Under the pieces are notes generated by a model that was not told the DNA's origin, made no database searches, and saw only the letters and a program-made list of their open reading frames with translations. The position numbers and the translations under genes were made by a program. Shown here piece after piece: positions 10,501 through 63,000 of a stretch of DNA of 64,000 nucleotides. Numbering within the stretch: the stretch's first letter is position 1; every line of letters begins with the position of its first letter. Origin of the DNA: Octopus vulgaris (Eukaryota); the NCBI GenBank assembly GCA_951406725.2, contig OX597816.1, positions 81,592,001 to 81,656,000 of the forward strand, written 5' to 3'.

Positions 10501-11715
10501 AAAACTGTTTCTACCAGATCATCTTTCATAGAGCCATAAAATCTTATTTGGTTAGTGAAGAAAAAGTCAAATGAGTGTCTGTAAAATTTGGAAATTCTAA
10601 TGCATTATATTATGATTTATATTAATCAGAACTGATTCATCATCATTTAACGTCCACTTTCCATGCTGGCATGGGTTGGACGGTTTGACTGATAACTAGT
10701 AAGCCAGGGTGGGTGGGCTGCACCAGGTTCCAAGTTTACCTCTTTTGTTCTCATTACTTTTAAAACTTTCGCTTCCTCCTCCATATTATGCAGAATGGCT
10801 GCCACCAGCCAATCTCAGAGTACCTCAATCTCCAGGGGTACTCTGCCAATCCTTACCCTGGCCACTCGTTTGCCACAGTAAGTCAGCAGAAGTACCCACT
10901 CTGGTGTCCTTAGTGCCTCGCTTCTTGTTCGCTCACAAACCTTACCTCCACTGTGCTGTAATTTTTCCCTCTGGTATAGAAAGTTGTGAGGCTTTTTACC
11001 TCTATGGCTTCCACAGTAGCTATTTCAATTCTTTTTGTTGCTGTGGACAGCATTCTATATACCACTTCCACTTCATCACACTAGCTGTCAAATCTTGTGG
11101 CTAGATCAACCTCAAACTGGTTCCCTCCTTTTCAATAAGCCTGTTAAACTCCTTCAGCTTCTTTTTCTCCATCTTCACCTCTCAAACCTGTAGTACATCC
11201 ACAGTTAAACTTCTTTCAGTGGCTGATGCATAGCTGCCAGCTGGGACTGGTTCACTTTCCAACCTTCCTTTTTTCCCTACTTCACCCATAAATGGGGAAG
11301 AAAACAATTATTAATTCACAGGCAATAAAAAACAGCAACTAACAATGAGCTTCGACAATTAGGTTCACCCTTACAGGAGACCTTCAACAAATAATTAACA
11401 ATGCGACTCACGTCTAACAGTGATCAAAAATGATTAAACCGAACACCAAAAAAAACAGCGGCGACTATTCACTGTTCAACTACTGACTGATAAACCAACA
11501 CACATTGAACTAACACAGTAAACCAACACGGTCAAACTAACACCATCAACTACTCCCTTGACAGTTAACTCAGTCCTTATTTATTGTAATTAGTCCACCT
11601 TCGGTCATGTGGAGGTGTTCAGGATTCTACCATAACACATACTGAGATCATTGCTTTTCTTACTAATAAAAAACAAATTGCTTAAGAAAGGATTCTGACG
11701 AAGACAAGTACTTAC

Positions 11716-12034: not shown

Positions 12035-14112
12035 GATAATGGTTCACTTGCATTAAACAAGGCTGCAAAGAAAGAGGTTTGGAGATGCCACTATGAAAGG
12101 TTGCTAAATAAAGAGAATGAATGGGAGAAAGAGAGTCTGCCGAATGCTGACTCAACAAAGGGACCAGCTATCCGAATTGACAGTACCTTGGTAGATAAAG
12201 CAATTAAGGGTATGAAGATAGGGAAAGCCCCTGAGCCATCAGGAATCACCGCAGAGATGCTCAAAACATCTGGTGGTGTCGGCTATAGCCGAGTCACCCA
12301 TATAGTTAACCAGGTGATACATGGAGTCATACCCAATGACTGGTGTAGCAACAACAGTCAACCGCTACAAAGGTAAAGGTGACACTTTAGATACAAATAA
12401 TTATAAAGGTATCAAGTTGTTGGATCAGGTAATGAAGGCCACGGAGAGGGACATAGCCCAACTAATTAGGGAGAGAGTTAGTCTAGATGAGATGCAGTTT
12501 GGTTTTGTGCCAGGGAAAAACACCACCGATGCTATATTTTTTGGTAAAACAGCTGCAGGAGAAATACCAAGCCAAAGATAAACCTCTGTACCTGGCTTTC
12601 ATTGACATGGAGAAAGCCTTTGACAGGGTCCCCCGATCCCTTATTTGGTGGTCAATGAGGAAACTAGGGATAGATGAATAGTTAGTGAGAGTTGTGCAAG
12701 CCATGTACAGGGATTGCTATCAGTAAGGTGAGAGTTAGCAACGAGTACAGTGAAGAATTCTGGGTAGGGTAGGGGTCCACCAAGGATCAGTCCTCAGCCC
12801 CTTCTTATTCAATCTTAGTCCTCCAGGCAATAACAGAGGAAATCAAGACAGGATGCTCCTGGGAGCTCCTCTATGTTGATGACCTTGCTCTAATTGCCGA
12901 GTCACTATCAGAACTAGAGGAAAAGTTTCAGGTGTGGAAGCAAGGATTAGAATCAAAGGGCTTTAGAGTCAACTTAGCTAAAACCAAAGTCTTAATAAGT
13001 AGGAAGGCAGACAAACCACAAATCCCTTCAGGCCGATGGCCCTGCTCAATCTGTAGAAAAGGCCTAAGTAGAAACTCCATATGATGTACCCATTGTAAGC
13101 TATGGACACATAAGAGGTGCAGCAATATCAAAGGAACTGAGAAGAAAGTTTTTGTATGTGGCAAATGCTCAGGTGCTATAAACACTGAAAATGTGCAGAG
13201 AATAGCTTCTGTCACATTCCAGGGAGAAAAACTAAAATAGTTGATAGCTTCTGTCACATTCCAGGGAGAAAAACTAAAATAGTTGATAGCTTCTGTTATC
13301 TAGGTGACCAAGTCAGTAGTGGGGGTGGATACTCTGAAAGTGTAGCTGCTAGAATAAGAATAGCCTGGGCAAAGTTCAGAGAGCTCCTACCTCTGCTGGT
13401 GACAAAGGGCCTCTCGCTCAGAGTAAAAGGTAAACTGTATGACGCATTTGTACGAACAGCCGTGCTACATGGCAGTGAAACACAGGCCATGAGTAATCTT
13501 GCAAGGAATGAAGCTAGTATGAACCGCTGGATGTGTAATGTCAATGTGCATACACGACAGAGTGTAAGCGCCCCGAAAGAAAAGTTGGCAACAAGACAAG
13601 TGAGACCATAACCCGTGGTCTATGCCAGTGGGTGTAACCAGCCCACTTATGAGTACCCCTCATTCATTGGACAATAAACTTTGCTTGTGAAGACCTATTG
13701 CAGCAAGCGAAATCAAAATCAAAATCACTGACATGGCTGATGACAGTGGAACATTAAAAGCACATCTGAGCGTGATCGTTGCCAGCATATGTGCCAGTGG
13801 CATGTGAAAAACAACATTCGAGCATGGTTGTTACCAGTGCCACCGGATGGCTCCTGTGCAGGTAGCATGTAAAAAACGCCTTTTGAGCGTCGTCAGTACC
13901 AGAACCACCTGACTGGCCCTTGTGCCGGTGGAATGTAAAAGCAACCACTAAACTCTCGGAGTGGTTGGCATTAGGAAGGGCATCCACCTGGAGAAACTTT
14001 GGCAGATCAGATTGGAGCCTGGTGCACCCTTCTGGCTTGCCAGTCCTCAGTCAAACCGTCCAACCCATGCCAGCATGAAAAGCGGATGTTAAATGATGAC
14101 GACAATGATGAT
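12035..14112 (+). mobile_element. Decayed 5'-truncated RTE-clade LINE in SF3B6 intron 1, antisense to the gene
   Basis: Frameshifted RT motifs QFGF, DMEKAFDRVPR, HQGSVLSP, YVDDL, CYLGD and HGSET. Internally repetitive 3' UTR ending in (GAT)n. Confidence 0.9.
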
Positions 14113-23667: not shown

Positions 23668-23946
23668 AAGTGTTGGGCCTCATGGAGGCAATGACTGAGA
23701 ACTTTGGCATTATGTCATGCTTGAGAAGACCCATCAAGCTAAGCAAAATTGTAGTTGTGACAGATACTGGTGTCATGCAAATAGCACCCATGCTTGTGGC
23801 ATGTAAAAGCACTCATTACACTCTCAGAGTGGATGGTGTTAGGAAGGGCATCTAGCCATAGAAAACCATGCCAAATCAGCTTACCAGTCCTGGTCAAACC
23901 GTCCAACCCATGCCAGCATGGACAATGGACGTTAAATGATGATGAA
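23668..23946 (+). mobile_element. RTE 3'-UTR-only copy
   Basis: Matches the 3' UTR and tail of the 13.9-14.1 kb element. Confidence 0.8.
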
Positions 23947-27579: not shown

Positions 27580-28610
27580 TGCCTCCTTTCTTTCTAACCA
27601 TTACAAGTATTTTGCATTCATTACAATACAGCATAGCAGTTCTAACATAAGTATCATACAATCTACCCTTCACACTGACAAAAAAAAAATACCTTCATTG
27701 CCAGCAGAGGTAGTAACTCCCTGAATTTTCTACAACCTGTTCTTAAATTGGTTTCTATGGTTTAAGAACAACCACCTCCCTTGCTAATATCACCTATGTT
27801 ACAGAAATGATTGACTACTTCCATTGAACCAACTAAGCATTTGAGAAAGTGCTTTTGGTGCATATTACTCCAGTGTATCTGCCACATGCAGAATATGCCT
27901 TCTCTGTTAGTATACCTGTGATCCCACTATATCTCTTGGATGTCCATAACTTACACTGAGTACAGCATATAGAGTTTGTAGCTACTCCTTTTCTGCAATT
28001 TAAACATGGCCAATTTCTTGATGGGAATAGCCTTGTTCAAGATTCCATCTTCTTTCCTACTTATTAACTCATAAGTTTTTGCTAAGTTTACCTTAATGCC
28101 TTTCAATTCAAGGTTTTGTTTCCATGCTTGAAATTTTGTCTCTAATTCCAGTATAGATTTAATTATATGAATTAAATCAATGACATATAGAAGTTCCCTT
28201 TAACAGATAGTCTTAAACTCCTCTGTGATGGCCTGTAAGACTATGATGAGTAAGAGAGGGCTGAGGACTCTACCTTGATGCCCCATCCCACATCACACAT
28301 ACATTAAATTCGTTGCTGAACCCATTATTGACTCTCACCTTATAACTTACTTCACCTTTGTACATAGCATGAACAACCCTCACAAACTACTCATCTACAC
28401 CTGGTTCCCTTAGTGACCACCAGATTACTGATTGTAGTACTCTATCAAAAGCATTCTTCAAGTCAATGAATGTCAGATACAGTGGTTTACACTTTGTCAA
28501 ATATTTCTCTTGCAGTTGTCTTACTACAAAGATTATATCTGTGGTACTTCTTCCAGGTACAAAGCCAAATTGCATCTTATCTAGAATAACTATTTGATCA
28601 GTTGTGCTCT
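27580..28610 (-). mobile_element. Decayed RTE LINE fragment
   Basis: MQFGFVPGRSTTDIIFVVRQLQEKY…DLKNAFDRV, collinear with the 12-13.6 kb copy. Confidence 0.85.
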
Positions 28611-30951
28611 GACTCTCTCTGACTTTCATAGTCACAAAGAGAGACATCCAACAGATTGATGCTTCTATAATTTCTTCTCTCTGAAGCACCCCCTTTGCTT
28701 TACAATGATACTGCAATGCCAGTTATTGAGTATTATTTGAATAAGTAGGATGGAGATACCATGAAAACAACAGAATATAAAGATGGACAAAATGCTGCTA
28801 AGCATTTTACCCAACTTGCTAATGATTCTGCCAGCTCATTCCCTTGTATTCCTGTTAATATCTCCAGAAATTCAATGAAAGTATTGACTAGATCAACCTT
28901 GACCTTTCTCTTTGCAACATCAAAGAGGTTTTTGTTCATTTTGTGAGCCTTGCAAAACTCACAAATGTGGGATTGTTCACTGCAGTGATTAATAATTAAG
29001 TTTAAGTCTTTGTTCCTGTACTAGAAATTGTTTGTTATTGAATGAGGGTGAGAATGTGTATAGACATTACTCATCAGAACATGCCCATATCAAAGTTCAC
29101 ACAAGTGTTTTTATTCTCTTTAGATACAGTTTTAATTTTTTAGCCATACAGTTAATTTATTTTTATTGTCACTGTTTACAGTAGTTTTTCTGAGGAGCTT
29201 TCAGGAAACTAACTGTATTTTGTTTGTCAAAAGCATCCTGCTGAGAATTCAGTGCAGATGAGTAGGACATGTTGTTCAAAAATGATCACATTATGAAAAT
29301 TCTTTCATATGGCCAACGAGTAGAAGGATACTGTGGTAAAGAAAGATCCATCCTTAAGTATAAGGATAAATTGAAATAGTCACTAAGATCTCTACAGCTT
29401 AATTTGACATTCTGGGAAAGTTATTGCCTAGATTGATCTGCATGGCATAAAATGTGTCTGATGCATGAAAACTATTTGAGTTGAAGTAATAGAATTATAT
29501 CCTGCAGTCAACAGACACATTTGTCCAATCCCAGGCAAAATCAAAATCATCAGTTTCTCCATTGTAATTTCATAGCAAAATCTATACCTGGACTCAGATT
29601 ACATTTATGCATCCATTACAAATAGATGCAGCTTCTTTTATTTTTAGACTTCTTTTGTTTTCTAAATCCTTTCCTTCAAACACTCATATGTCAAAATTGA
29701 TGTGAGTGGCCATTATTTATCACCATGTATTACATTAGTGATTTGCTTACACCAAAGTTATAAATATTGTTATTCTAAACATAAATGTACAACAGTTATT
29801 AGTGGAGATGATAGCTATTTCTAATTGATGTTTAAATAAGATTCTGACTTGAGCAAATATGATTGTTTTTAGTGTTAGGAATGTTTTTATATTTCTCTTT
29901 TCTCTGTATGTTGAGATTTTTGTCTACTTTCATTGCCATTATGATTGTTTAGGCTTTACATGTTTATTATTCAAATCAAGCAAAACATTAATTAACATTT
30001 CCTTACTTAACTGCATAAATGGCAAGCATATTATCAACTACTACATGATGTTTGTTTTAAACCAGTCTAAGTGTTGCATCAGTATTAAATGTAGTTTAAT
30101 ATGATGTAATATTTGCTCATTTTTTCTGTACTCTTATGGGTTTAATTACTTTACCACCTTCATTGTCCTCTTTCAATCTGATCCTACTTTTAGTTGTCAC
30201 ATACTTAAATAGATTTTTCTCTTTTCTCTCCTAGAGTTTTATGGCATTTTTTCATGGTTGGTTATCTTAATCATTTATTTGAATCACTTGTTTGCTCACT
30301 TTTTATCATCTATTTTCCCTGTCATTCTTATATAATATTTTTCTTTCTTCTTTCGATCTTATTAGATCTCCTCAGTGAAGCACATTCAGCTTGGGTGACA
30401 AAGCAGTGATGTGATCACTATATATTGATAGAAAAGGATGAGCTCTGTCCATTGCTTTCACCAATTGATTCTAAAGACAAGATCCACTCCCATCTGCACT
30501 ATCTTAAATTTCCCAAAATTGTGATTAGGTGAAATTATTAGAGTTATTTCCCATGTTTTTTTTTTGTTTTTTTTATATTTTAGCACCTTTAGGAAGACTT
30601 TTGTCTACTAATTGCATGGATAATCTTGATTAATTGAATTTTTTCATCTCACTATAGTACACCCCCTACTGTATGTGTATTTAGTATGCAGAATGCTCCT
30701 TTGAGTTTTTTTATCTACTCAATCAAAATTCAATTGAGATCAACCTTTGGTAAAATAAGTATTTATTAAGTACTACAGTTAATCTAATCAACTGTACATG
30801 TCTCCAAAATGTGTGATCTTCTACCAATGTTAGAAATTATTATTGTTATATTGATGGGTTGTGAGCTGGTAGAATTGTTAACATGTCAGGCAAAATGCTT
30901 AGTGGTTTTGCTTCAGGCTCTTTAGGTTCCAAGTTCAAATTCCACCGAAGT

Positions 30952-32639: not shown

Positions 32640-33262
32640 TATAATAATAATAATAATGAAATTATTGTATCCAGTGCTTAGGTGCACCACAACTTGTCAA
32701 AAGTGCGTATAAAGCATATGCAGTAATGTACAAATGTCTGGGAAGTGAACAGTGTATGAGTCAGATACATGCTTGCGTGTGTATGGAGGGGAGAAAATCA
32801 GGTGTAGTGTTGACGAATATTGAAGGATGCAGTGCTCTGACAACTAACAACTGATGCTGGCAGTTTGCTCCATACTTCCGCAACTCTTAGAGTGAAAAAA
32901 TATTTCCGAAAGTCATGGGAGCTGTGCTGCTTTCTGACTTTGTAAACATGTCCACGGGTTTTAGACAGGTGGAGTTTGAAAAGGTGCTCAGAGTTATTGT
33001 TAGTAAGATGGTTAATAATTTTATGGGTGTCTGCCAAGTCAGCTGCCAGAAGTTGGAGTTTCAATGTATCCATGCCCAGGGAAGTAAGGTGTTCAGAATA
33101 TGGCAAATGCCTGATGGAGGGTATTCTCTTAGTTGCACGTCGCTGAATGGTTTCCAGACGATTAATATCCTGGGCAAGATAGGGGTTCCAGACTGGTGAT
33201 GCAAATTCCAGGTGAGGCCACACCATAGCTATATTAAGCCTCAGATAGATAGCCGGAGAGCA
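32640..33262 (-). mobile_element. 3' fragment of a second CR1/L2-type LINE family
   Basis: PHLEFASPVWNPY…LETIQRRATK…RGHVYK…WSKLP, then a 3' UTR ending in (ATT)n. Confidence 0.88.
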
Positions 33263-33736
33263 GAAATGTAACATTCAAATAAAAAGAAAAAAAAATTTTT
33301 CAAAAATCTCCCAGTGATTTAACATCTGCACCTTAGCATAAGTAATTGTTTTCTGCAAGACATGGTCATCATAAAATTCAACTTTCAAAAAAAGACCATT
33401 ACATTTCTGTCATCTGTGATATTATTTTGTTACGATCTTTATATACAACACTATGCCTTGGCATTCCTTCTTTCCCTTCTCTGTGAATGTTGCCATCTCC
33501 TCCACCAATCACCTGCAACTCCAATCACTATAACTCCTCCTCCTGCATCCCATATTTCAATTTTCTTTCTCATTCACTGTCTTTCTCTCTTTCTCTCTTC
33601 CCTACCATCTCTCTGCTATATATTTTTTTGTGACAAATGGCCCAACTAAGGGACCAACACAGAATGCATATTATATACATAGATACATGTAATATTTTTA
33701 CTTAATATAATGATTTAATATTAAAAAATGTAAAGT

Positions 33737-41106: not shown

Positions 41107-41466
41107 TTGGTTGGAGAATTGTTCTCTGTGAACGAAAATGTCAGTGTTCTTAAGGTCGCTCGGCTAGGAAGATTCCAAGCGAACCCAACCGCAGATACTA
41201 GACCACGCCCAATAAGGGTAATCTTTTCTTCTGATCGGGAGGCTTCAGTCTTTCTGAACAGAGCTCAGACGCATGCCTGGGAGGACCCCAATATGGGTTT
41301 TCGCGAGGAATACTCACTAAGAGAGAGAATTCGCCGGAGGAACCTGATATCCGAGCTAAAGATGAGGAAACAAATGGGAGAGAAGGGTTTACGAATCCAA
41401 GATGGACAGATAATCAAGTCCTACCTCTGGTCCCATGCTGTAGTGCTGACAGGGAAAGGGATGTGA
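41107..41466 (+). CDS. LINE ORF1 C-terminal portion
   Basis: RLGRF…RPRPIRVIF…ER.RRR.L..ELK.R…GEKGL.I.DGQII is typical of CR1/L2-like ORF1 C-termini. It is 5' truncated. Confidence 0.8.
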   Translation: MVGELFSVNENVSVLKVARLGRFQANPTADTRPRPIRVIFSSDREASVFLNRAQTHAWEDPNMGFREEYSLRERIRRRNLISELKMRKQMGEKGLRIQDGQIIKSYLWSHAVVLTGKGM

Positions 41467-44351
41467 GGGCAAATCGAAGTGAAGTTGATACCCCCGTCAA
41501 CGATGCTATCTCTGATGCCCTTTATTCTGCTTGTTCCCCAACTCCCGCCCCTCAGACTTCACAGCTCAGCATCGTCTACACCAACTCGTGCTCCTTATTC
41601 CCAAAGTTCAGTGAACTATTTACACTGGCCATACGTGACTCCCCTGATGTGATAGCTATCACCGAGACTTGGCTGACTCCAGCAGTAAAGGACTCAGAAA
41701 TCCACCTGCAGGGCTACGTCCTTTTCAGATGTGACAGAGGAAAAGGGCGAGGTGGAGGTGTTGCTGTGTATGTTAAGTCTGAGCACAAACCGTCCTGCGG
41801 TATTCTACCCACAAATGCTCAACCTACAACCAAATTCGATGCCGTCTATTGCAAGCTGAGCCTATCTGAGTTTTGCCTGCCCGTGTTGGCTGTCTACAGG
41901 CCGCCTCTAGCCGACCCCCAGGACGATGCTCATCTACTCGAAGCGATAAGATTCGTTTCAGCTTCGCATGACTGCTTGGTACTAGGCGACTTCAACGCTC
42001 CCACGATCGATTGGCCCGCATCAATTTGTACAACATCTTCCCGGTTCGGCCAGGCCCTTCTTGACGTGGCTGAAGATTGTTTTCTATCGCAACATGTTGA
42101 ATATCCGACAAGGCATCGGTCTGGGCAGCAGCCATCTATGCTAGATCTGGTATTCTCCCGCTATCCAAGATCAGTGTCAGACGTATCTGTGTGCGCCCCT
42201 CTTGCCAAGAGTGATCATGCGGTCCTGAAGTTCGTCATGCACACAACTTTTTCCACGCCCGCGATTACTTCGCTGCCACGTAGAGTCTTCTCTGCAATTA
42301 ATCTTGAAATTCTAACTGAGGCTTCCGCGCTTCTGGACTGGCGATCCCTGATGACGTTGTCCTCAGTTGACGAACTATGGTCATCCCTCAAAGCATATGT
42401 AATCTGTTTGACTGACCAGGCAGTTCCCGTTGGGCTTCCCAAGAGGAAGAAACACAAGCCCTGGGTGACGAAGAAGGTTAAACGAGAACGTCAACTCAGA
42501 GATATTGCTTGGGCTGAATTCAAAAATCTGGATTCGACTGCAGCTTTTGAGGTGTACAAAACTCAACAAGACCGAGCCGTGAAAATTGAAAAGAAAGAAC
42601 GCTTCAGTTATGAATACAAAATCGCGGCAAATGCCAGTAGCAATCCAAAAACCTTCTTTGCCCATGTCCAGCGGAATTCCCGCTTGAACAACCAGATTGC
42701 AACGTTGGCAGACTCAACAGGCGTATCGATTGAGGACCCTTATCAACAGAGTCAATTATTTGCCGAAGCTTTTTCAACTATTTTCAAACAAGATGATGGT
42801 CGTGAACCCCCTCCATTTGATAGATCGGTACCTCCAATGCTTCGATTGATCATCACGCGGGACGAAGTCAAACGTGTTATTCAAGGCCTCGATGTCAACA
42901 AGGGTCACGGCCCTGACGGCATACACCCACGGGTTATCAAAGCGTTGGCTCCGGTCATCTGCGAGCCCTTAACACGACTATTCAATATGTCATTGGCGAC
43001 GGGTGTTATACCTGCAGACTGGAGAACAGCGATAATCTGCCCAATTTTCAAGAAAGGGAGCCGCGAAGACCCGCTTAACTACCGACCGGTTTCCCTTACA
43101 TCAATAATCAGCAAGATGTTCGAAACCATCCTTAAGAAAAGTATGATGCTCCACCTCCTAAACACAGCCTCGATCACTGATTCCCAACACGGCTTCGTGC
43201 CGAAGAGATCATGCTTGACCAACTTACTAGTAATGGAAGAATTGGTGACGCGCATCCTCGATGATAGTGATGCTGTTGACATCGTTTTATTGGACTTTGC
43301 CAAAGCTTTTGACTCGGTAAACCACCGCCTACTACTTGTCAAGCTTCAAGCATATAGTTTCCATCCGGATATTGTACGATGGGTTGGTGCCTTCCTCTCA
43401 GATCGCTCCTTCCAAGTTCAAGTTAATGGTTCGCGGTCCGACGTCTCCAGTGCGAGCAGTGGCGTGCCTCAAGGTTCAGTGCTTGGGCCCTTGTTGTTCT
43501 TAGTCTTCATAAATGACTTGCCCGATGACCTCACGCAACACACCCTTCTATTTGCCGACAATATCAAACTGGTCGCTCCTCGCGGTAGTATAGAGGATCT
43601 TCGTCGATGCCTCCACCAAATTTGGAAGCGGTCTCACGATTGGGACCTGTGTCTGAACGTGTCAAAGTGCTGTCATCTGCCTGTCGGCTCTACTCCTGCA
43701 ACTCAACTTGATTTCGAGCCGGGTCGTCTGCTGCTGGAGAGGACCGATCAGGTAAAGGACCTGGGTATCTTGGTGGATTCCTCCTTTTCGCCTTCGGCCC
43801 AGTGCGTCCATGCTGCCAACAAAGGGCACGAAATTCTGTTTTTGATTCGACGGTCATTCGGAATGCTCACAGCAGCCATATTCCTGCCACTCTATGTCAT
43901 GCTGGTGAGACCCATATTGGAGTATGGGATTCAAGCCTCTTCTCCTTATCTCCTCAAAGACATACAGCATCTCGAAAGAGTCCAGAGGCTGGCTACCCAC
44001 ATGGTTCATGGTCTCAAAAATTTGTCCTACGAAGAAAGGCTGAGGACGCTTGACCTTTATTCTCTTGAAAAACGCCGCCGCCGTGGTGATCTCATTCTCG
44101 CCCACAACATCATAAGCGGGAAGTGTAACCTCTCGAAAGAGCTGTTCTTCACTCCTGCTCCGGAGCGTCGGCTGCGGGGTCATTCCGAAAAGCTCTACCT
44201 GCGACGATTTCATCTCAATCGAAGGAGAGGAGCTTTCTCCGTCCGGGTTGCGGATCCGTGGAACAAGCTGCCAGACAAGATGGTGAAGATGCCGACGACC
44301 GCTTTGTTCAAAGCCTCCCTGGACCTCAAGTGGCCTGAACTCTTTACATGA
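41463..44351 (+). CDS. LINE ORF2: APE endonuclease plus reverse transcriptase (962 codons, catalytic motif reads FADN)
   Basis: APE motifs YTN, IAITETWL, GDFNAP, LDL and SDH. RT motifs YRPVSLTS, QHGF, LDFAKAFDSV, GVPQGSVLGPLLF, FADN and KDLG. CR1-type C-terminus RGH…WNKLP. Confidence 0.95.
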   Translation: MRANRSEVDTPVNDAISDALYSACSPTPAPQTSQLSIVYTNSCSLFPKFSELFTLAIRDSPDVIAITETWLTPAVKDSEIHLQGYVLFRCDRGKGRGGGVAVYVKSEHKPSCGILPTNAQPTTKFDAVYCKLSLSEFCLPVLAVYRPPLADPQDDAHLLEAIRFVSASHDCLVLGDFNAPTIDWPASICTTSSRFGQALLDVAEDCFLSQHVEYPTRHRSGQQPSMLDLVFSRYPRSVSDVSVCAPLAKSDHAVLKFVMHTTFSTPAITSLPRRVFSAINLEILTEASALLDWRSLMTLSSVDELWSSLKAYVICLTDQAVPVGLPKRKKHKPWVTKKVKRERQLRDIAWAEFKNLDSTAAFEVYKTQQDRAVKIEKKERFSYEYKIAANASSNPKTFFAHVQRNSRLNNQIATLADSTGVSIEDPYQQSQLFAEAFSTIFKQDDGREPPPFDRSVPPMLRLIITRDEVKRVIQGLDVNKGHGPDGIHPRVIKALAPVICEPLTRLFNMSLATGVIPADWRTAIICPIFKKGSREDPLNYRPVSLTSIISKMFETILKKSMMLHLLNTASITDSQHGFVPKRSCLTNLLVMEELVTRILDDSDAVDIVLLDFAKAFDSVNHRLLLVKLQAYSFHPDIVRWVGAFLSDRSFQVQVNGSRSDVSSASSGVPQGSVLGPLLFLVFINDLPDDLTQHTLLFADNIKLVAPRGSIEDLRRCLHQIWKRSHDWDLCLNVSKCCHLPVGSTPATQLDFEPGRLLLERTDQVKDLGILVDSSFSPSAQCVHAANKGHEILFLIRRSFGMLTAAIFLPLYVMLVRPILEYGIQASSPYLLKDIQHLERVQRLATHMVHGLKNLSYEERLRTLDLYSLEKRRRRGDLILAHNIISGKCNLSKELFFTPAPERRLRGHSEKLYLRRFHLNRRRGAFSVRVADPWNKLPDKMVKMPTTALFKASLDLKWPELFT

Positions 44352-48149: not shown

Positions 48150-48413
48150 ACGTCACGGCACAGGTGCCAGCATCGCCTTACTGGCACCTGTGCCGGTGGC
48201 ATGTGTAAAAGGATTCGAGCAAGGTCGTTGCCAGTACCGCCTGACTGGCCCCCGTGCCGGTGGCACGTAAAAGCACCCACTACACTCTCGGAGTGGTTGG
48301 CGTTAGGAAGGGCATCCAGCAGTAGAAACTCTGCCAGATCAAGATTGGAACCTGGTGCAGCCATCTGGTTTGCCAGACCTCAGTCAAATCGGCCAACGAT
48401 GATGATGATGATG
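48150..48413 (+). mobile_element. Young RTE 3'-UTR-only copy
   Basis: CpG-intact version of the same 3' UTR with a (GAT)n tail. Confidence 0.8.
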
Positions 48414-52971: not shown

Positions 52972-53615
52972 ATGTGATGTGTATGGATGAGGACAGCTGT
53001 GCAAAGAGTGCCAATCTCTAACTGTGGAGGGAACCTGTGGTAGAGGTAGATTCAAAAAGACGTAAGAGGAGGTGGTGAAGCATGATCTTCAAACTTTGGG
53101 CCTCACAGAGGCAATGACTAGTGACCAAGATCTTTGGCGATATGCTGTGCTTGAGAAGACCCATTAAGCCAAGTGAAATCGTAGTTGTGGCTGATGCTGG
53201 TGTCACATAACTGGTACCCATGCTAGTGGCACATAAAGAGCATCTTTCAAGCTTTAAGCCTCACAGAAGCAAAGTGGCTGATGCTGGTGGCACATGAAAA
53301 GTTCCTTTCGAATGTTGGGTCTCATGGAGGCAATGACCTAGACCTTTGGCATTATGTTGTCCTTGAGAAGAAGACCCATCAAGTCAAGTAAAATTGCAGT
53401 TGTGACAGATTCCATGTCATGTAAATGACACCCATGCCAGTGGCACATAAAAGCACCCATTACACTCTCGGAATGGTTGGCATTAGGAAGGGCATCCAGC
53501 CATAGAAACCATTTCAAATGAGACTGGAGTCTGGTACAGCCTTCCGGCTTGCCAACCCGGTCAAACCATCTGACCCATGTCAGCATGGACAACAGATGCT
53601 AAATGATGATGATGA
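52972..53615 (+). mobile_element. RTE LINE 3' end
   Basis: C-terminal …VEGTCGRGR… followed by the repetitive 3' UTR with aggaagggcatccagc and a (GAT)n tail. Confidence 0.85.
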
Positions 53616-54180
53616 TAGATTAAATAGTAAGTTATTTGTTAGAGTTCACTAAAGCTCAGTATATATCTTCAAACCCACATTTTTTAACACCATTGTTGAA
53701 GCAGTTCATTACAGATGTACATAGAAGTGAGTTACAAAATAGAAATAGTGGGTGCACAAATGATGCAGTATACTTGTACACTGATTTGGAACTAAAATAT
53801 AAGTTATATAATAAATAGTGCAATCATCTGAAGATTGAAAATCTTGAATTTGACGAATTTATTTACTTCAAGAAGTAATTAAGTAACCCAAAAAATGCTA
53901 TTAGCACTGCAATTTGTTGAGAAAATAGCATAATTTCTAGAATCTAAAATGACTGGAATGAGATTTAGGAACTGCTGGTTGTTGACGAGTGTGTGTGATA
54001 CTGTGTGCCAGTGAAACTTGACCTGTTAAGTCAAAAGACTTGCAGGAGTGAAGAGAAATGAGTTACATCAATGTGCAATGCAAACTTGATATCAATTTAG
54101 CACGGGTTTTGAGGGAGTGCCTACATACCCCAAGTATTAACCAATGCTATTAAAAGTAGTGATGAAAATGGTATGGAAAT

Positions 54181-54234: not shown

Positions 54235-55630
54235 ACTGAGTTGGACAGGTCTTCTCAAGAACTATCTATCATCAGCCATCCAAACTCTTTGCTATCTCCT
54301 CCGTGAGGTTCAAGATCCTGAGATTAGCCTTCACCAATTTGCCTCATGTCTTCTAGGGTCTCTCTCTCTCTCTCTCTTCTACAAACTCCATCCACATTGA
54401 AATCAATACTTCTTTATATAGCTATCATCAGCTATATGAATCACATGTCCATACCAGCGCAGTCTTTTTCTGGGACACTACATTTGATACTTATTATGCC
54501 CAGTTTTTCTTTTGGCACATTCATACTATATCGTTCATGCACACTTACATTGTACATCCAATGGAATATACTCACCTCATTTCTTTCCAATCTTCTCAAG
54601 TCCTCTGCATTCAAGGCATATGTCACACTACAATGCAGCATCACAGTTTGAACATAAGTGTTTTACAATCTGTTCTTCACTCTGAGGGAAAAGACCTTTA
54701 TTACCAGCTGTGGTAAAAGCTCCCTGAACTTATTTCATCCTGTTCTTAGCCTTGCTACAGTACTTTTGGAGCAACCATCTCCCCTGTTAATTATGTCTCC
54801 TGGGTAACCAAAGTTATTGATTTCTTCTCGCATGTCATTCAAGTATTCAAGTGAATCTATTTCCAGTGTGCTCATAGTATGTACTGCTCCAGAGGATGAC
54901 ACATAATAAGTTTACTTTCTCTGTTAGCCTGTAATTCTACTACACCTCTCATGTATCCTTAACTTACATTGGGTACAGCTTTTGGAGTTTATACCTACTT
55001 CTTTCCTGCTTATCAAGCAAGACCATTTCACATAAGATACCAAGGTCCTGTAGTATTTCCTACTTAGTCTTTACTAAGTTTATTTGGAAACCTCTTGAGT
55101 CAAGGTTTGTCTTCCATGCCTAGAATTTCCTCTCTTATTCCACTATAAATTTATCATCAATATATTCCACTATAATAAAATCACTATAAATAAATCATCA
55201 ATATATAGGAGCTCTTGTGGCCAATCTCACTCTGTGATGGCCTGCTAGACTATGATGAATAGGGGAGGACTAAACTTTGATGAACTACCTTCTCAGTAAA
55301 TTCGTCACTAAATTTTTGCTGATTCTCACTTTACTTACTGCATCTTTGTATAGTTTTCACAGCCCCCACAAGTTATTTGTCTATACCTAGCTTCCTTAGT
55401 GACCACCAAATTACTGAATGTGGTCTCCTGTCAAATGCCTTCTCCAAAGCAATGAAAGCCAGAAATAGTGGTTTATTCTTAACCAAGTATTTCTCCTGCA
55501 GCTGCCTCACTAGGAAGATCGCATCTGTGGTACCTCTTTTGGGCATGAAGCCAAACTACATCTCATCTAGGTCTACTCTGTCACAGACTATGACTCTCTG
55601 TGACCTTCATAATCTGATCCATTTGTTTTA
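54235..55630 (-). mobile_element. Decayed RTE LINE fragment
   Basis: Reverse complement gives RQLQEKYL…EKAFDR and EDLRRLERNE, the same family as above. Confidence 0.85.
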
Positions 55631-58399
55631 TTCCTTTGAGTATGCCTTCATTCCAAGTACACTGCTTGCCAATGGCATTGTGGTGCTCCCTTACACATTG
55701 TTTCACAATTCTGAACACTTCATGCTTCCGATACTCAGATTGTTGGACATGTGCAAATCTCTTCCTTCATGTGTAGTTATTTTTTTTTTCCGTAAATCTC
55801 TACATAGCACACCATATGTGGCTTATATTTGGCTAAATTGATAAAATTTCAACCAAAGTGTGCATTCCATACTTGTGTGTTTGCAGCCAGTGCAATTACT
55901 TCTCAAAATGACTTTATCAAACCTTTTGTGAATAAGTACCGAGTTTGGTATCAACCTACAGACTGTAAACAGCAAGAGCTCTGTATAACTAACAAGTATT
56001 TCTTTATCTTACTGTGTGAAATTTTTGAGTGTTGGTTGGAGAGGTATGAATGAACTTTGCCTCACTGACTTGCCCTAGATACACTATACTGAATACAAAG
56101 TCTTCAAGAGCAGCCCTTATGACTCAGTGGGCTATTAGACTCCTTATTACTTATTGTCATTTGGTACAATGATTTAACAGGTATTTGCTCCTTTAAATGA
56201 GTAATTTCCATTTACAATCTTTATTTATGGAATTGGCATTGATAAAAATAACTAAAATGAGTGCTAGCTATGATTCAGTTCTCATTGCAAGTTATCTATA
56301 ATTATGACCCAATTATATAGGTGGTTATTTTCAACAGCTTGGCTGTAATTAATCATATTCACTCAGCAACAGTTGATTTCATGGTTTTGTTGTTTTTGTT
56401 TTCACTAGCATCTGTCATCATTTCAAAAAGATTACCACCATTGGCCTGGGACATTTCAACCTAAATATACAAGAACTGTTAATATAAATGCTGTTGTTAT
56501 TTAAGATGAGGAATATACATAAGTTTATGCAACAGTCTACTTATGGGTAAATTCCTCCTAACCTTATTTAACTTTTACTTGCTGACCAAACTGTTTTTGG
56601 ATTTATTTATATATCTCATTACAAATAGTTAAACAAATATGAAACTCCAAATTAATTAATGTTTCAAATAAGAGTTGCTTAACACTTGAAGTGTTGTTCT
56701 TCAGTTCCTGAGGAGAATGTCAGATTTCATTGGTCTCATCACACTTGTTGCTGCATATATTATCTTCATTGCTTTTATTTCTTCCATTATTGGCATTGTC
56801 ATATTATATAATTAATTTGTTTTCTTTTCTATTATTGAAAGTTTTTTTTTGTTATGGGTTCTTCATATTTTTCAAATCAAGAATATTATTTTCTGAGATT
56901 AACATTGCCTCAGTGAGTTCATGTGTCACAACCAAACACTTTGGTTGCTTACATCTTCTGTGTTAAACAACAGTATTCAGTGAGCTGACTGAGACAAAAC
57001 TGGAATAACACTGTGGTCCTGTGTTAGTTACCGTTAACAAACTGTGGCACATCGAAGTGAGATGGTTGAATGGATTAGGTATTGGATTACCAGTTCATTT
57101 TGTTTTGTTGCTGTGTAGATTTTATTTTTGTCAGTTTACTTGCATATCAGAAATAAGTACCAGATTTTTTAATAAAAGATCAATATCACTAATCACATAT
57201 TTATGCATACTTAAGATAATATAAGTTGAAGTAATTGACTAATTATTGCACCAGTAGATGGAATAAATAAATATTCTTACATCTGATATACTGTTAAATG
57301 TTCTGGTTATCATTTACCATTAGCTCAGCTCCGATTGAGAAAATCTTGGACCAAATGTATTCTAGCTGTGACTATCTTTTGACATATTAAAATGTCACTG
57401 ATGAATGTCTTTTTCTTTTTTAAAACATTAGGGTATGGTATGAAAAAAATCTACTGCTATTTCTACCAGGCTGGGCAGACATTTAGTGATTCCCTCATTG
57501 GTTTGTAATTTTAGTGATTGATCAGATGCCAGTGGCATGGAAATAGCTCATAAAACCCTTGAAAACAATCCCAAACTCACCACAATGGCTGTACTACTCT
57601 TCTGTCTCATCTGGGCTTATGTTGTCCACACTGTTTCATTGCATGATATAAATTGTTAGTAGTTAATGTTATACAGTGTGGTCAGTAAACACTAGTGTTT
57701 ACTATTTACTACTTTGATACTTGCATAGTTGTATTATAGAAGGTGTACTCTATAGAGGGTGTGTTCTGGTAGTGATGTTTCTTTCACTCAGTACCAGAGC
57801 ACACCCTTTGATAGAAATTCCAAATTGTTTCTTAAGTTTTCTGTAGACTAAATTTACAATAATATTCCATTTTGTTTTTATTCATTTAGTTTATTGGGTT
57901 TATCTTTTAGAGACAAACTTAATAAATGCAGAAACCTTTTCTGACTCAATAAAGGAAGTCTCTAAGCTGTTAATCAACCCACTGGAGGTAGCTAATAACT
58001 CTTTCAGATACCAGATACTGCTGTCTTAAAAGAAAAGTTTATTGTATAATTTAATCCTGACTATAGAAAAAAAAATCCTTGATGGTTATATTTGGGATGG
58101 TTATATATAGGTTTGCTTGATTAGAGCCAATCTGAAGCTAAATAAACAACTAGCTTTTTCTTTATGATAGCAGACATTATTTGCCTTTTAGTTATATATT
58201 ACTAATGTTACTTATATCCTGAAGTCTTTGTTTTAAATACATTCACAGGGTTTGAATGTCAAAACATTTTATTTATTTTACAAATATGCTTCCAAAACTT
58301 AGTAACTGATATGAGGGGGGAAAAAACTTAAATACTGAGGTTGGAATGATTTACACATACTGAGATATTGCAATAAAATGTAATATTAAAATAAAAAAT

Positions 58400-60031
58400 T
58401 ATCATCAGCTAATGTTCGCTTTCCAAGCTGGCATGGGTCAGATGGTTTAACTGGAACAGGTAAGCTTGAGAGCTGCACCAGGTTCTAATTTGATTTGGCA
58501 TGGTTTCTACAGCCAGATGCCCTTCCTAATTCCAGCCACTCCAAGGGTGTAATAGGTGCTTTTTACGTGCCACTGGCATGACACTGACAACAGCCGTGAC
58601 TACAATTCCACTTGGCCTGATGAGTCTCCTCAAGCACAGCATATCACCAAAGGTCTCAGTCACTTATCATCACCTCTGTGAGGCCCAGCATTCAAAGGTC
58701 TTGCTTCACCACCTCGCCACTGTGAGGCCCAACATTCAAAGATCATACTACAGACAACAGCCACAATTATGATTTCACGGGTGCCATTTACATGACACCA
58801 GCAATGGCCATGAATACTATTTCACTTGGCTTGATGAGTTTTCTCAAGCACAGCATATTGCCAACGGTCTTGGTCACTTGTCACTGCCTCCGCAAGGCCC
58901 AACATTTGAAGATTATGCTTCATCACCTCGTCCCATGTCTCTTTATGCAGCTGTCCTCATCCATACATGTCACTTGACAATACCAGCACATTCGTCTCTC
59001 TTGCACATCACATCTGACGCCTCTTGTGCCCAGTTTTCAAGGCATTATCAACACGCAAGACACTTACACTCTGTTGCACATGCACACTGTCATGGCAATC
59101 CAGCAAAGCATACTGGCTTCATTTGTTTCAAGCCTTTGCATGTCCTCTGTGGTCACAGCCCACATTGCACTGCCATGGAGCGTGGATGCTGTGTTTGCAC
59201 ACAGTCATTATACAGTCTGCTTTTCATTCTAAGAGAGAGGCTCTTTGTTATCAAAAGAAGTAGATCTCTGAACTTTGCCCAGCCTATTCTTATTCTAGCA
59301 GCTACACTCTCAGAGCATCCACCTCCAATGCTAACTTGGTCACCTAGATAATGGGAGCTATCAACTATTTCTAGGTATCACCCTGGCATTTGATGGAGTC
59401 TATTTTCTGTACATTTCTAGTGTTTATTGTACCTGTACATCTGCCACACACAAAGAGTATTTTCCCTGTTAAACTTCCTCTTATATTGCTGCACCTCTTA
59501 TGTGTCCATAGCTTGCACCACATGGATTTTATGGAGTTTGTACCTACACCTTTTCCACATATTGAGCAGGGCCATCTACCTGCAGTTTGACTTAAATTCC
59601 TCTGTCTGAGGACTCATCCTTGATGTACCCCTACTTATCCCCTGGGGTGTCCGAGGACTCATCCTTAGTGTACCCCCATTTATACCCTGAATTCATTGCT
59701 ATACTTGTTGCCAACCCTCACTTTAATGACAGCATCCCTGTACATAGCTTGTACAGCTCTCACCAACCACTCCTGTATCTTTAGTTTCCACATTGACCAC
59801 CAGATAAAGGAGCAGGGAACCCTGTCAAAGGCTTTCTTTATGTCAACAAAAGTCAAATACAGAAGTTTATTTTTGACTGGGTACTTCTGCAACTGCCTTA
59901 CCAGAAATATAGCGTCAGTGGTACTTCTCCCTGGCACAAAACGAAATTGCATCTCATCTAGACTAACTCACTTCATAATTAGTTGGGCTATGATCCTCTC
60001 TGTAACTTTCATCGCCTGATCCAACAATTTG
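58400..60031 (-). mobile_element. Decayed RTE LINE with 3' UTR and an internal deletion
   Basis: MQFRFVPGRSTTDAIFLVRQLQ…KKAFDRVP, Cys-rich insert, 3' UTR repeats and tail at about 58400. Confidence 0.88.
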
Positions 60032-62679
60032 AAAAATACATGTAGAAAAAGAAATTGAAAAGTAAGTGTACATATTTAAAGTATTGAACGTACTTATGTG
60101 GGGAGGAAAACATTAGATTAATTTATCATTAATCTTTTCAAACCCCCCACCACCACCACCACCACACACACACACATGATTCTCATCATTCATTCTTCCT
60201 CTATGCTTCCTCAGACCTTCTCTTGAATGAGATGATGTTTCTACTTGTCCTGAGAATTGCCAACCTGGGCCTTTCAAAAGTATATGAAGTCCATATGACT
60301 GAAAGGCCATAAGAATTTTGGGGTTAAGGCAGCAGAAAGCATGGATGAAGTGGGAGAGTCTGAGGCAGCACTGTATTATTTGGCCAAACAACATGCATGC
60401 CTGTATCATTTTTGATTATTTGTCCAGGCTATTTACAATGCTATGCCAAGCCTTGCTAACCCTCACATCTGGACAAAAGTGTTACACCATCCTGTTCTGC
60501 TCTGAAAGAGGATTGTTAGAAAATCGTTCAGCTTTACTAACTGTAATTAGTCATAGTGTCCTGTAAATATTGGTGCTCATGTGTCTTTGAAACTTTCATC
60601 ATTTTAACATCCACTTTTCCATGTTTGCATTGGTCAGACAGATTATTGAAGCACTTTTCGATTGCTGGATTCCCTTCCTGTCACCAACCCATATCTGTTT
60701 CCAAGCAAGGTAATTTTTTCCCCATGACCAGACATGTTTTCATAGAATATTAGAAATGAATGAATCTTCTGTTATGCTTTTTTTATAACATAATGTGATG
60801 TCAAGATTAGGAAACACAAACACACATACACTCACACACAATGGGGTTTCTTTCAGTTTCCATCTTCCAAATCCATACAGCCACACTTGTGCCTATGATA
60901 TTAGAAGCTAAAAATAGTTATAAAGTAGAGCAACATAAAATGAAGAGAATAATTTTTCAGTAAGATTTTTTAAATTGTTAAAAAATGTTTTAGTAAATCT
61001 TTTTTTATTAATGAACAAAAATAACTAAACTGGTTTCCAGTATTTATGGAATAATGTTTCTGTGGCACATAACAATTCAAAAATCATCCAGCAGGGCATC
61101 ACCTGATTTAATGCCATCACTTTTCCTTGGTCCTTAGGTCCTTCAGTAGTGTCCATTCTGTTGCAAGTATTTGGGTTAGGTTTCTATTCCGAGAAGAATG
61201 TGAATAACTTCCTCCCTTCTTCCTGTTGGAGGCCTTGAAAAGGGGTTATAGATGTTACTTGTCTTCTGGCTTTATCAAACAAAAATTATATTAAAAAACA
61301 TACATTATTGTTATTTATCTATTGGTTTGCACTGATCTGGTAGACTTATGTTCAAGATGTTACAGTTATGACACGCCCATCTTTTACTCAGACACACTGT
61401 ATCTAAGAATTACATTACCAGTATCCCTAATTTTTTTCAAGATGGTAGAGTATAATATAAGGGAAGCTAACTGCTGTTTAAAGTGATTGAGTCACCATAT
61501 AAAGGCTCTCTCTGGTACATCTTGTCAAGTCTACTTTTTGCAATCTGTGTCACTGAAGCAACCAATTTAAATAGATGCTTTTAGTGATATCCATTGTTTT
61601 TGTAATGTGAGGTAGGCTCTCCTGAGAGTTTGGATTTAAAACATGTGGTCAGTTGAGATTTGAACAGAATCAAGTTGCCAGGGGGCTGTAAATTCCCTTG
61701 CTGGATTATTTTTTATTCTTTTGCTAACATCATTTAACACTGCATCAATAGAATACTTGCTGTCTTGTAGAAATTTAACTGATATGATAAATTTTTGTGT
61801 AATGTTTAAAGTTTTTACTCCCCTTTTTCTGCGCAAATTGTATTGCTACACAATCTATTGAAATATTATTTTTACTAATGTATAAATACTATTGTTACAA
61901 TATTTTCATCCATTTTAAGGATATTTGAATACAATTGGTGGAGATTTGATAGGATGAGTGATTATGCAGAGGCTCATTTATAAATAAAGAGGCAAAATGG
62001 ACAAAATGTATGTAGGAAAAGGCAAGAAGATTGGGTTGATGATTAACAGGCTGTATATCAATAAATCCTGCTTCAAATGGACTTTGAAGTCCATGGTTGT
62101 GGTGGCAGTTTAAATTGAATGAATACAATAAGTAGGTCTGAAGTGTACAAGCAATATACTGTTGTCATGGTTACATTACTAACTACCTGTGTCATACATT
62201 TGCAGAAATTAAATTCCTTTGTAATGTAAGGTTGAAATTATGTCTGCTGTCTGCCAGTCAGATATCCATCGTCTTATCTTTTTCATATATATAATTCTTT
62301 TGTTTGTATGCTATAACTTGTATTTTTTTTCTATTTAAAATTATAATCATGTACTGACTAAGAAGAAAAAGGAAGTTATTGGGAAAAGTAATGGAAGTAA
62401 GTTTGACAAGAAAAATGTATAAATAAAGAAATCTGATCCTAAATGGATCATAGTGAACTGAGCTTAATGGTTCATAACATTAAGAAAATGAGAGACACTA
62501 TGAAAATTTGGTGTCAAATTTCCTGCATTTAGCTAAACTGATTGCCCAATATCTTGTCTATTTAGTTATTTCATTTCTACATACTTGGAGTATATAATTA
62601 AACTTTAATGTATTTAGACCCTTAAATACATTAACATTTTCCTCATTGGCTCACTTAGCTAGCATGAAATTTATTGTCT

Positions 62680-63000
62680 TCATCAGCATTATTTAACATC
62701 CACTTTCCATGCTGGTATGGATTGGATGGTTTGACTGGGACTAGTAAACCAGGGAGCTGCACCAGGTTCCAATCTGATTTTGTATGGTTTTTTTACAACT
62801 GGATGCCCTTCCTAACACCAACCACTTCAAGAGTGCAATGGTTGCTTTTATGTGCAACCAGCAAACAACATTGGCAACACCCATAACTACTACAACTACA
62901 ATTTCACTTGGTTTCATAAGTTTTCTCAGCACAGCATTGCCAAAGGTCTCAGTCACTTGTCATCGCCTCCGTGAGGTCCAACATTCGAAAGATCATACTA
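62680..63000 (-). mobile_element. RTE 3'-UTR-only copy
   Basis: Contains ggatgcccttcctaac, the reverse complement of the same UTR. Confidence 0.75.

Follow-up and report, generated by a model that had tools for sequence, protein, structure and literature searches.

The PHD fingers of the CR1 and L2 LINEs were reportedly described by Kapitonov and Jurka in 2003. According to PMC4120745, the top structural hit of these PHDs is Pygopus (2vpb/3zpv), and PHD-guided targeting was proposed for both families at a time when, by that account, no LINE PHD had been tested. Chlamys Penelope-like elements, which belong to another class of retroelements, are described in PMC8557442 as carrying a PHD inserted within the reverse transcriptase (RT) in five algal families, the site being either between RT2a and RT3 or in the nuclease. 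In R2, loop 6a (residues 672-677, between RT motifs 6 and 7) is described as reading upstream target DNA and as needed for nicking (PMC10499050), and PMC11601368 gives the same account. Within the RTE clade, the subgroup meant here is the animal/plant one, with subgroups taken as in PMC2887409. An octopus member, RTE-2_OV, is presented in PMC9115989 as an element of 1109 aa with a C2H2 finger, and no PHD is mentioned in that description.

Here we describe a LINE family of Octopus vulgaris in which a PHD finger lies inside the catalytic RT palm. Like the RTE clade, the family has one ORF (APE endonuclease, RT, thumb), a 3' tail of short tandem repeats and frequent 5' truncation, and from such sequence features we take it to be RTE-type; unlike that clade, it carries about 65 extra residues, including the PHD, between RT motifs 6 and 7. 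It shares with CR1 and L2 the presence of a PHD on a LINE, Pygopus as best structural hit and the same targeting idea, but the CR1/L2 PHD is found in ORF1 or at the N-terminus. Penelope-like elements likewise hold their PHD inside the RT domain; unlike those five algal families, the PHD here occupies the motif 6-7 site and belongs to a large clade. The insertion falls at the same place in the RT as R2 loop 6a, which, however, has six residues, reads bases and belongs to a site-specific element, whereas a folded, putatively two-zinc domain sits here in a dispersed one. The original prediction had left the novelty of this arrangement to be settled. No report of a PHD in the RT of an RTE element was found in full-text searches of the literature (subscription papers, Repbase Reports and supplements may hold one), but a PHD within an RT as such has the Penelope-like precedent (PMC8557442). 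Many database entries already bear both RT and PHD as automatic Pfam labels.

The window, by which we mean the whole 64-kb stretch of DNA that was analysed, contains four RT-bearing copies of the PHD family by tblastn, all of them broken (Table 1). Copy 1 consists of the RT, PHD insert, thumb, 3' UTR and a degenerate (GAT)n tail, without the endonuclease part. By blastn it is 83% identical to the young copy L201 over 12039-13588, with further blocks at 13592-13726 and 13909-14112, and a single in-frame TGA stop interrupts its finger at 13082-13084. The C4HC3 spacing originally predicted between motifs 6 and 7 of this copy was confirmed with all eight ligands and within the predicted coordinates. 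That the insert occupies the same place in every copy needs qualifying for copy 4, which shows the motif-7 side only. The four had also been called independent; they are separate insertions, 65-83% identical in DNA to a young copy, but they belong to one family and so do not amount to independent evidence of function, which was therefore sought in intact relatives.

Table 1. Positions of the PHD-family copies, their RT motifs and fingers, and other LINE-related pieces in the 64-kb window
Feature	Position	Strand	State or basis
Copy 1	12039..14112	+	5'-truncated, broken RTE-type LINE; blastn to young copy L201, tblastn
Copy 1, RT motif 5 (YVDD)	12872..12883	+	YADD in intact relatives
Copy 1, RT motif 6 (GFRVNLAKTK)	12959..12988	+	aligns to R2Bm via PHD-less RTE
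Copy 1, C4HC3 PHD finger insert	13037..13168	+	8/8 ligands; Pfam PF00628, fold
Copy 1, exact 42-nt tandem duplication, then frameshift	13202..13285	+	decay
Copy 1, RT motif 7 (FCYLGD)	13291..13308	+	other frame
Copy 2	27617..28733	-	old and broken; tblastn, blastn
Copy 2, RT motif 7	27789..27806	-	
Copy 2, finger	27875..28012	-	5/8 ligands kept
Copy 2, RT motif 6	28074..28100	-	
Copy 3	54409..55651	-	old and frameshifted; tblastn
Copy 3, RT motif 7	54795..54812	-	
Copy 3, finger remnant	about 54883..55025	-	
Copy 3, RT motif 6	55063..55092	-	
Copy 4	58398..60033	-	broken; tblastn, blastn
Copy 4, RT motif 7	59339..59356	-	motifs 5-6 gone by internal deletion
Copy 4, finger	59437..59574	-	7/8 ligands kept
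Another LINE, intact 1038-codon endonuclease-RT frame	41235..44351	+	(CTAA)n tail
3' fragment of the young PHD-less control LINE	32798..33274	-	
Pieces of the element's 3' UTR	10637..10685, 23784..23945, 48165..48397, 53426..53616, 62677..62863		match only the last 50-230 bp

The intact frame of the other LINE, which we take to be CR1/L2-like, lacks a PHD. The fragment on the minus strand belongs to a young, presumably CR1-like LINE family that served as a control for insertion sites. The pieces confined to the end of the 3' UTR are either short truncations or a SINE with the same 3' end. In 13 of the 16 4-kb bins of the window, CpG o/e lies between 0.13 and 0.34, which suggests a methylated gene body.

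Searches of the O. vulgaris genome gave 3608 candidates at the DNA level, 40 of which were scored, and 94 scored places at the protein level; 60 copies were retrieved. Ten of these 60 young copies encode the endonuclease, RT, finger and thumb in a single 1059-codon ORF, and intact relatives have, by Pfam, one ORF with an APE endonuclease followed by the RT and no RNase H. The 3' UTR of young copies is 600 nt long, and a (GAT)n 3' tail is present in 55 of 60. The family was active recently, given that 45 copies have a median identity of 99.4% to L201. Of 51 young copies, 22 lack a target-site duplication of at least 7 bp, and most of these lie outside microsatellites; what the remainder show is mostly TA-rich simple sequence. 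The longest young copies (L199, L162 and L167) have tandem units of ~550 bp in their 5' region (oriented about 1500-2560), resembling the promoter monomers of some L1s.

The finger of copy 1 scores 26.4 bits (E 6.8e-6) against the Pfam PHD profile PF00628, whose curated cut-off is 24 bits; five of seven intact relatives score above this cut-off and two below. A C1 or RING identity was rejected on its weaker Pfam scores. Modelled alone, the finger is predicted to form a self-contained fold (pLDDT 80). The top Foldseek rows for this model are PHDs at a probability of 0.96-1.0, but with E values of 0.027 or higher, and VIA ranks Pygopus best (Z 5.2, rmsd 4.2, 53 residues aligned), the middling Z being expected for 62 residues. 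Profile and structure prediction thus bear out the proposed PHD fold, and the ligands suggest that it binds two zinc ions. The closest solved PHDs are those of Pygopus (E 1e-7), BPTF, PHF2, PHF13, TAF3 and others, which, going by entry titles, are mostly H3K4me readers. By title, PHF2-VRK1, MLL4-TET3 and Pygopus-BCL9 entries are also among the fold matches; the protein atlas lists PF27108 as PHD_Pygo.

Among relatives, 137 of 141 proteins could be anchored, the other four having been dropped for want of the anchor motif. Seven of the eight predicted ligands are invariant in all 137 and the eighth is present in 136; a tryptophan and a proline of the finger are invariant as well. The 141-protein set came from queries that contained the finger, so a second search was run with the RT alone, and the finger was present in 115 of the 120 nearest proteins. 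Of the five without a complete finger, three end or break inside the insert, one has a deletion and one is a distant catfish element. Linker lengths between motifs 6 and 7, obtained for 244 of 297 proteins having RT and thumb, form two groups: 157 finger-bearing proteins have 80-99 residues and 85 PHD-less ones have 10-29; the two odd rows are deletions. A chance cluster of cysteines and the capture of a host exon by one copy were rejected on this ligand conservation and these linker lengths. Mean identity is 0.61 in non-ligand finger columns, comparable to the thumb (0.62) and endonuclease (0.63), versus 0.34 and 0.29 in the flanking linkers. Two silent changes and one replacement in 49 finger codons between two young subfamilies are too thin to read.

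Public sets contain many intact relatives, 1000-1100 aa long. Among named proteins the nearest are those of Octopus bimaculoides (84%) and O. vulgaris (69%), and one PHD-bearing relative is from amphioxus (RT and PHD by Pfam), the host range of the clade resting on these three named proteins. No relative was found in the viral contigs searched, and a search of sequencing runs listed no RNA run that contained the family. P0004, an RT-PHD protein with 67% identity, carries the label of a bacterial MAG and is likely animal DNA in the MAG bin, and an octopus gene model that fuses an RT-PHD piece to a PF07766 domain (P0002) is likely a gene-prediction artefact.

For phylogenetic analysis, 145 PHD-bearing and 76 PHD-less proteins were thinned to 26 and 47, and the tree was built on 418 RT and thumb columns with the insert columns left out. 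All 26 PHD-bearing rows fall in one clade (support 100/95), on which grounds repeated gains of the finger were rejected. The simplest reading is a single gain of the finger by one RTE-type LINE branch, in the loop that follows RT motif 6. The clade nests among PHD-less relatives in a tree that leaves out named Repbase reference elements, and it is old, as identity within it falls to 36%. The identity of the PHD, its location within the RT and its conservation are upheld by profile, model, alignment and tree. A donor PHD was not found in the protein atlas, which returned only small PHD clusters; that the CR1/L2 PHDs share Pygopus as best structural hit hints that the donor may have been another transposon.

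The clade also holds one PHD-less row, P0349, which is a dead copy without catalytic aspartates. As the only PHD-less member is dead, the protein may now depend on its finger, and PHDs that bind non-histone peptides occur among the fold matches, both of which would suit a finger that binds a non-histone host protein (an import, repair or silencing factor) or that mainly braces the palm. We consider this the least probable of the explanations: no partner is indicated, and a brace sits poorly with variable linkers on both sides of a self-contained fold.

An AlphaFold2 model of the intact relative P0007 (pLDDT 87) keeps the RT fold, with L1 ORF2p and R2 as best fold matches at full length. In it, the finger (790-836) lies between the motif 6 strand (773-777) and the hairpin preceding motif 7. 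When R2Bm is aligned to RTE motif 6 via a PHD-less RTE, residue 668 is the last of its motif 6 strand, so the finger hangs from the loop that matches R2 loop 6a. By analogy, the finger may face the same upstream target duplex. Since it sits where R2 touches target DNA, the finger likely grips chromatin at the insertion site. We tentatively propose that it is a grip on target DNA or on a nucleosome next to the nick, which would help the enzyme to seat itself on chromatin for target-primed reverse transcription. The two variable linkers weigh against this, as on them the modelled finger may point elsewhere than at DNA.

The charge of the finger bears on this proposal. Net charge ranges from +1 to +11 (mean +6.3) and is positive in 176 of 176 fingers that fit the spacing, drawn from 328 proteins scanned. 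Its basic face might bind the DNA backbone. The same charge, together with the single 1059-codon ORF and the 600-nt 3' UTR of young copies, would also fit a finger that binds the element's own RNA, loading or chaperoning the template in place of the missing ORF1 protein. We regard such a role as improbable, as PHD-less single-ORF sister elements manage without the finger, the matching loop of R2 faces DNA, and the conserved pocket would be left unexplained.

That pocket was compared with the one in the Pygopus PHD, an H3K4me2/3 reader whose pocket is described as having walls of W366, Y341 and D352, a base of V350 and A356, an acidic face and an E360 required for binding (PMC2726290). Four of these five methyl-lysine pocket positions are kept in the finger: among the 176 fingers, the Y341 place is Y, W, F or H in 172, the V350 place is V in 166 and the A356 place is S or A in 172, and the W366 place is tryptophan in all 137 aligned proteins. 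The I357 place is I or V in 175 of 176. In contrast to Pygopus, a loop shortened by two residues lacks the D352 place, and none of the eight residues seen most often at the E360 place (150/176) is acidic, with T, S, N or K predominating. When the finger was modelled in complex with the unmodified O. vulgaris H3 tail, the score was 0.01, to which we give no weight either way.

Retention of these aromatic, valine, small-residue and tryptophan places, and best solved matches that are presumably mostly H3K4me readers, with Pygopus first, speak for a finger that reads a histone methyl-lysine (H3K4me2/3 or a different mark found on transcribed chromatin) and so steers insertion. Chromodomains steer chromoviral integrases in a comparable manner. 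We hold such steering doubtful and rank it second, behind the grip. The D352 and E360 equivalents are gone, although Pygopus binding needs E360, and the finger is uniformly basic as against the acidic Pygopus pocket face. The basic charge weakens histone reading without excluding it, since PHF13 is a basic PHD that reads H3K4me3. If the finger is chiefly a grip, its half-pocket might contribute a weak contact to methyl-lysine without setting the target.

Insertion sites were compared for 78 young copies (55 from a first set and 23 new, that is 30 minus 7 duplicates). Of the 78, 39 have a (TA)4 run no more than 30 bp from their 3' end. The young control LINE has one in 11 of 59 (p 1.7e-4 against the first PHD set) and an older PHD-less RTE in 7 of 25 (borderline, p 0.053; another 5 of its 30 copies lacked a clear end), and random windows reach 3.9% (n=6640). 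The endonuclease or microhomology of the tail may account for the (TA)n bias.

Median flank CpG o/e is 0.37 at the 78 young sites versus 0.69 at 80 random sites (p 1.6e-5), and 0.44 versus 0.75 in an independent subset (p 0.002); the low value also holds against random sites beside TA runs. Octopus methylation is described as lying on the bodies of expressed genes and not on transposons or most promoters (PMC9476566), so a CpG-poor flank is likely a gene body. Young copies would thus lie in methylated bodies of expressed genes, as a mark reader would predict, and the older PHD-less RTE is not CpG-poor (0.77, n=25). The young PHD-less LINE, however, shows a similar shift (0.445, n=59; p 0.008 versus random, p 0.13 versus the PHD family), and flank CpG is a proxy used without annotation, so the bias cannot be assigned to the finger. 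Flanks above 0.8, which are promoter-like, are rarer than random (7/78 versus 30/80); this counts against steering, and promoter targeting was rejected on it. It is also unlikely that the finger reads methyl-lysine and nucleosomal DNA at once and directs insertion into transcribed, methylated gene bodies, as a non-LTR counterpart of chromovirus targeting.

The fold, position, single origin, strong positive charge and kept half-pocket of the finger are directly supported. A grip on chromatin is favoured by the position at R2 loop 6a, the charge, the constraint and retention of the finger, its single clade and the non-random (TA) sites; our preference stays short of an even chance. The aromatic pocket is kept as well as the basic positions and would be unneeded for binding the DNA backbone alone, the (TA)n bias has other possible sources and is borderline against the PHD-less RTE, and sister RTEs transpose without a finger.

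The finding bears on how dispersed LINEs engage chromatin: here the finger lies in the catalytic protein itself, at a site whose role is known in R2. The existence of PHD-less sisters and of young intact copies in O. vulgaris makes tests by swap, deletion and pocket mutants direct. According to PMC13708176, RTE elements serve as tools for gene insertion. A natural 65-residue domain at the motif 6-7 loop marks a site at which the RT tolerates a targeting module and, if mark-reading proves true, this loop would offer RTE gene writers a site that tolerates grafts for retargeting.
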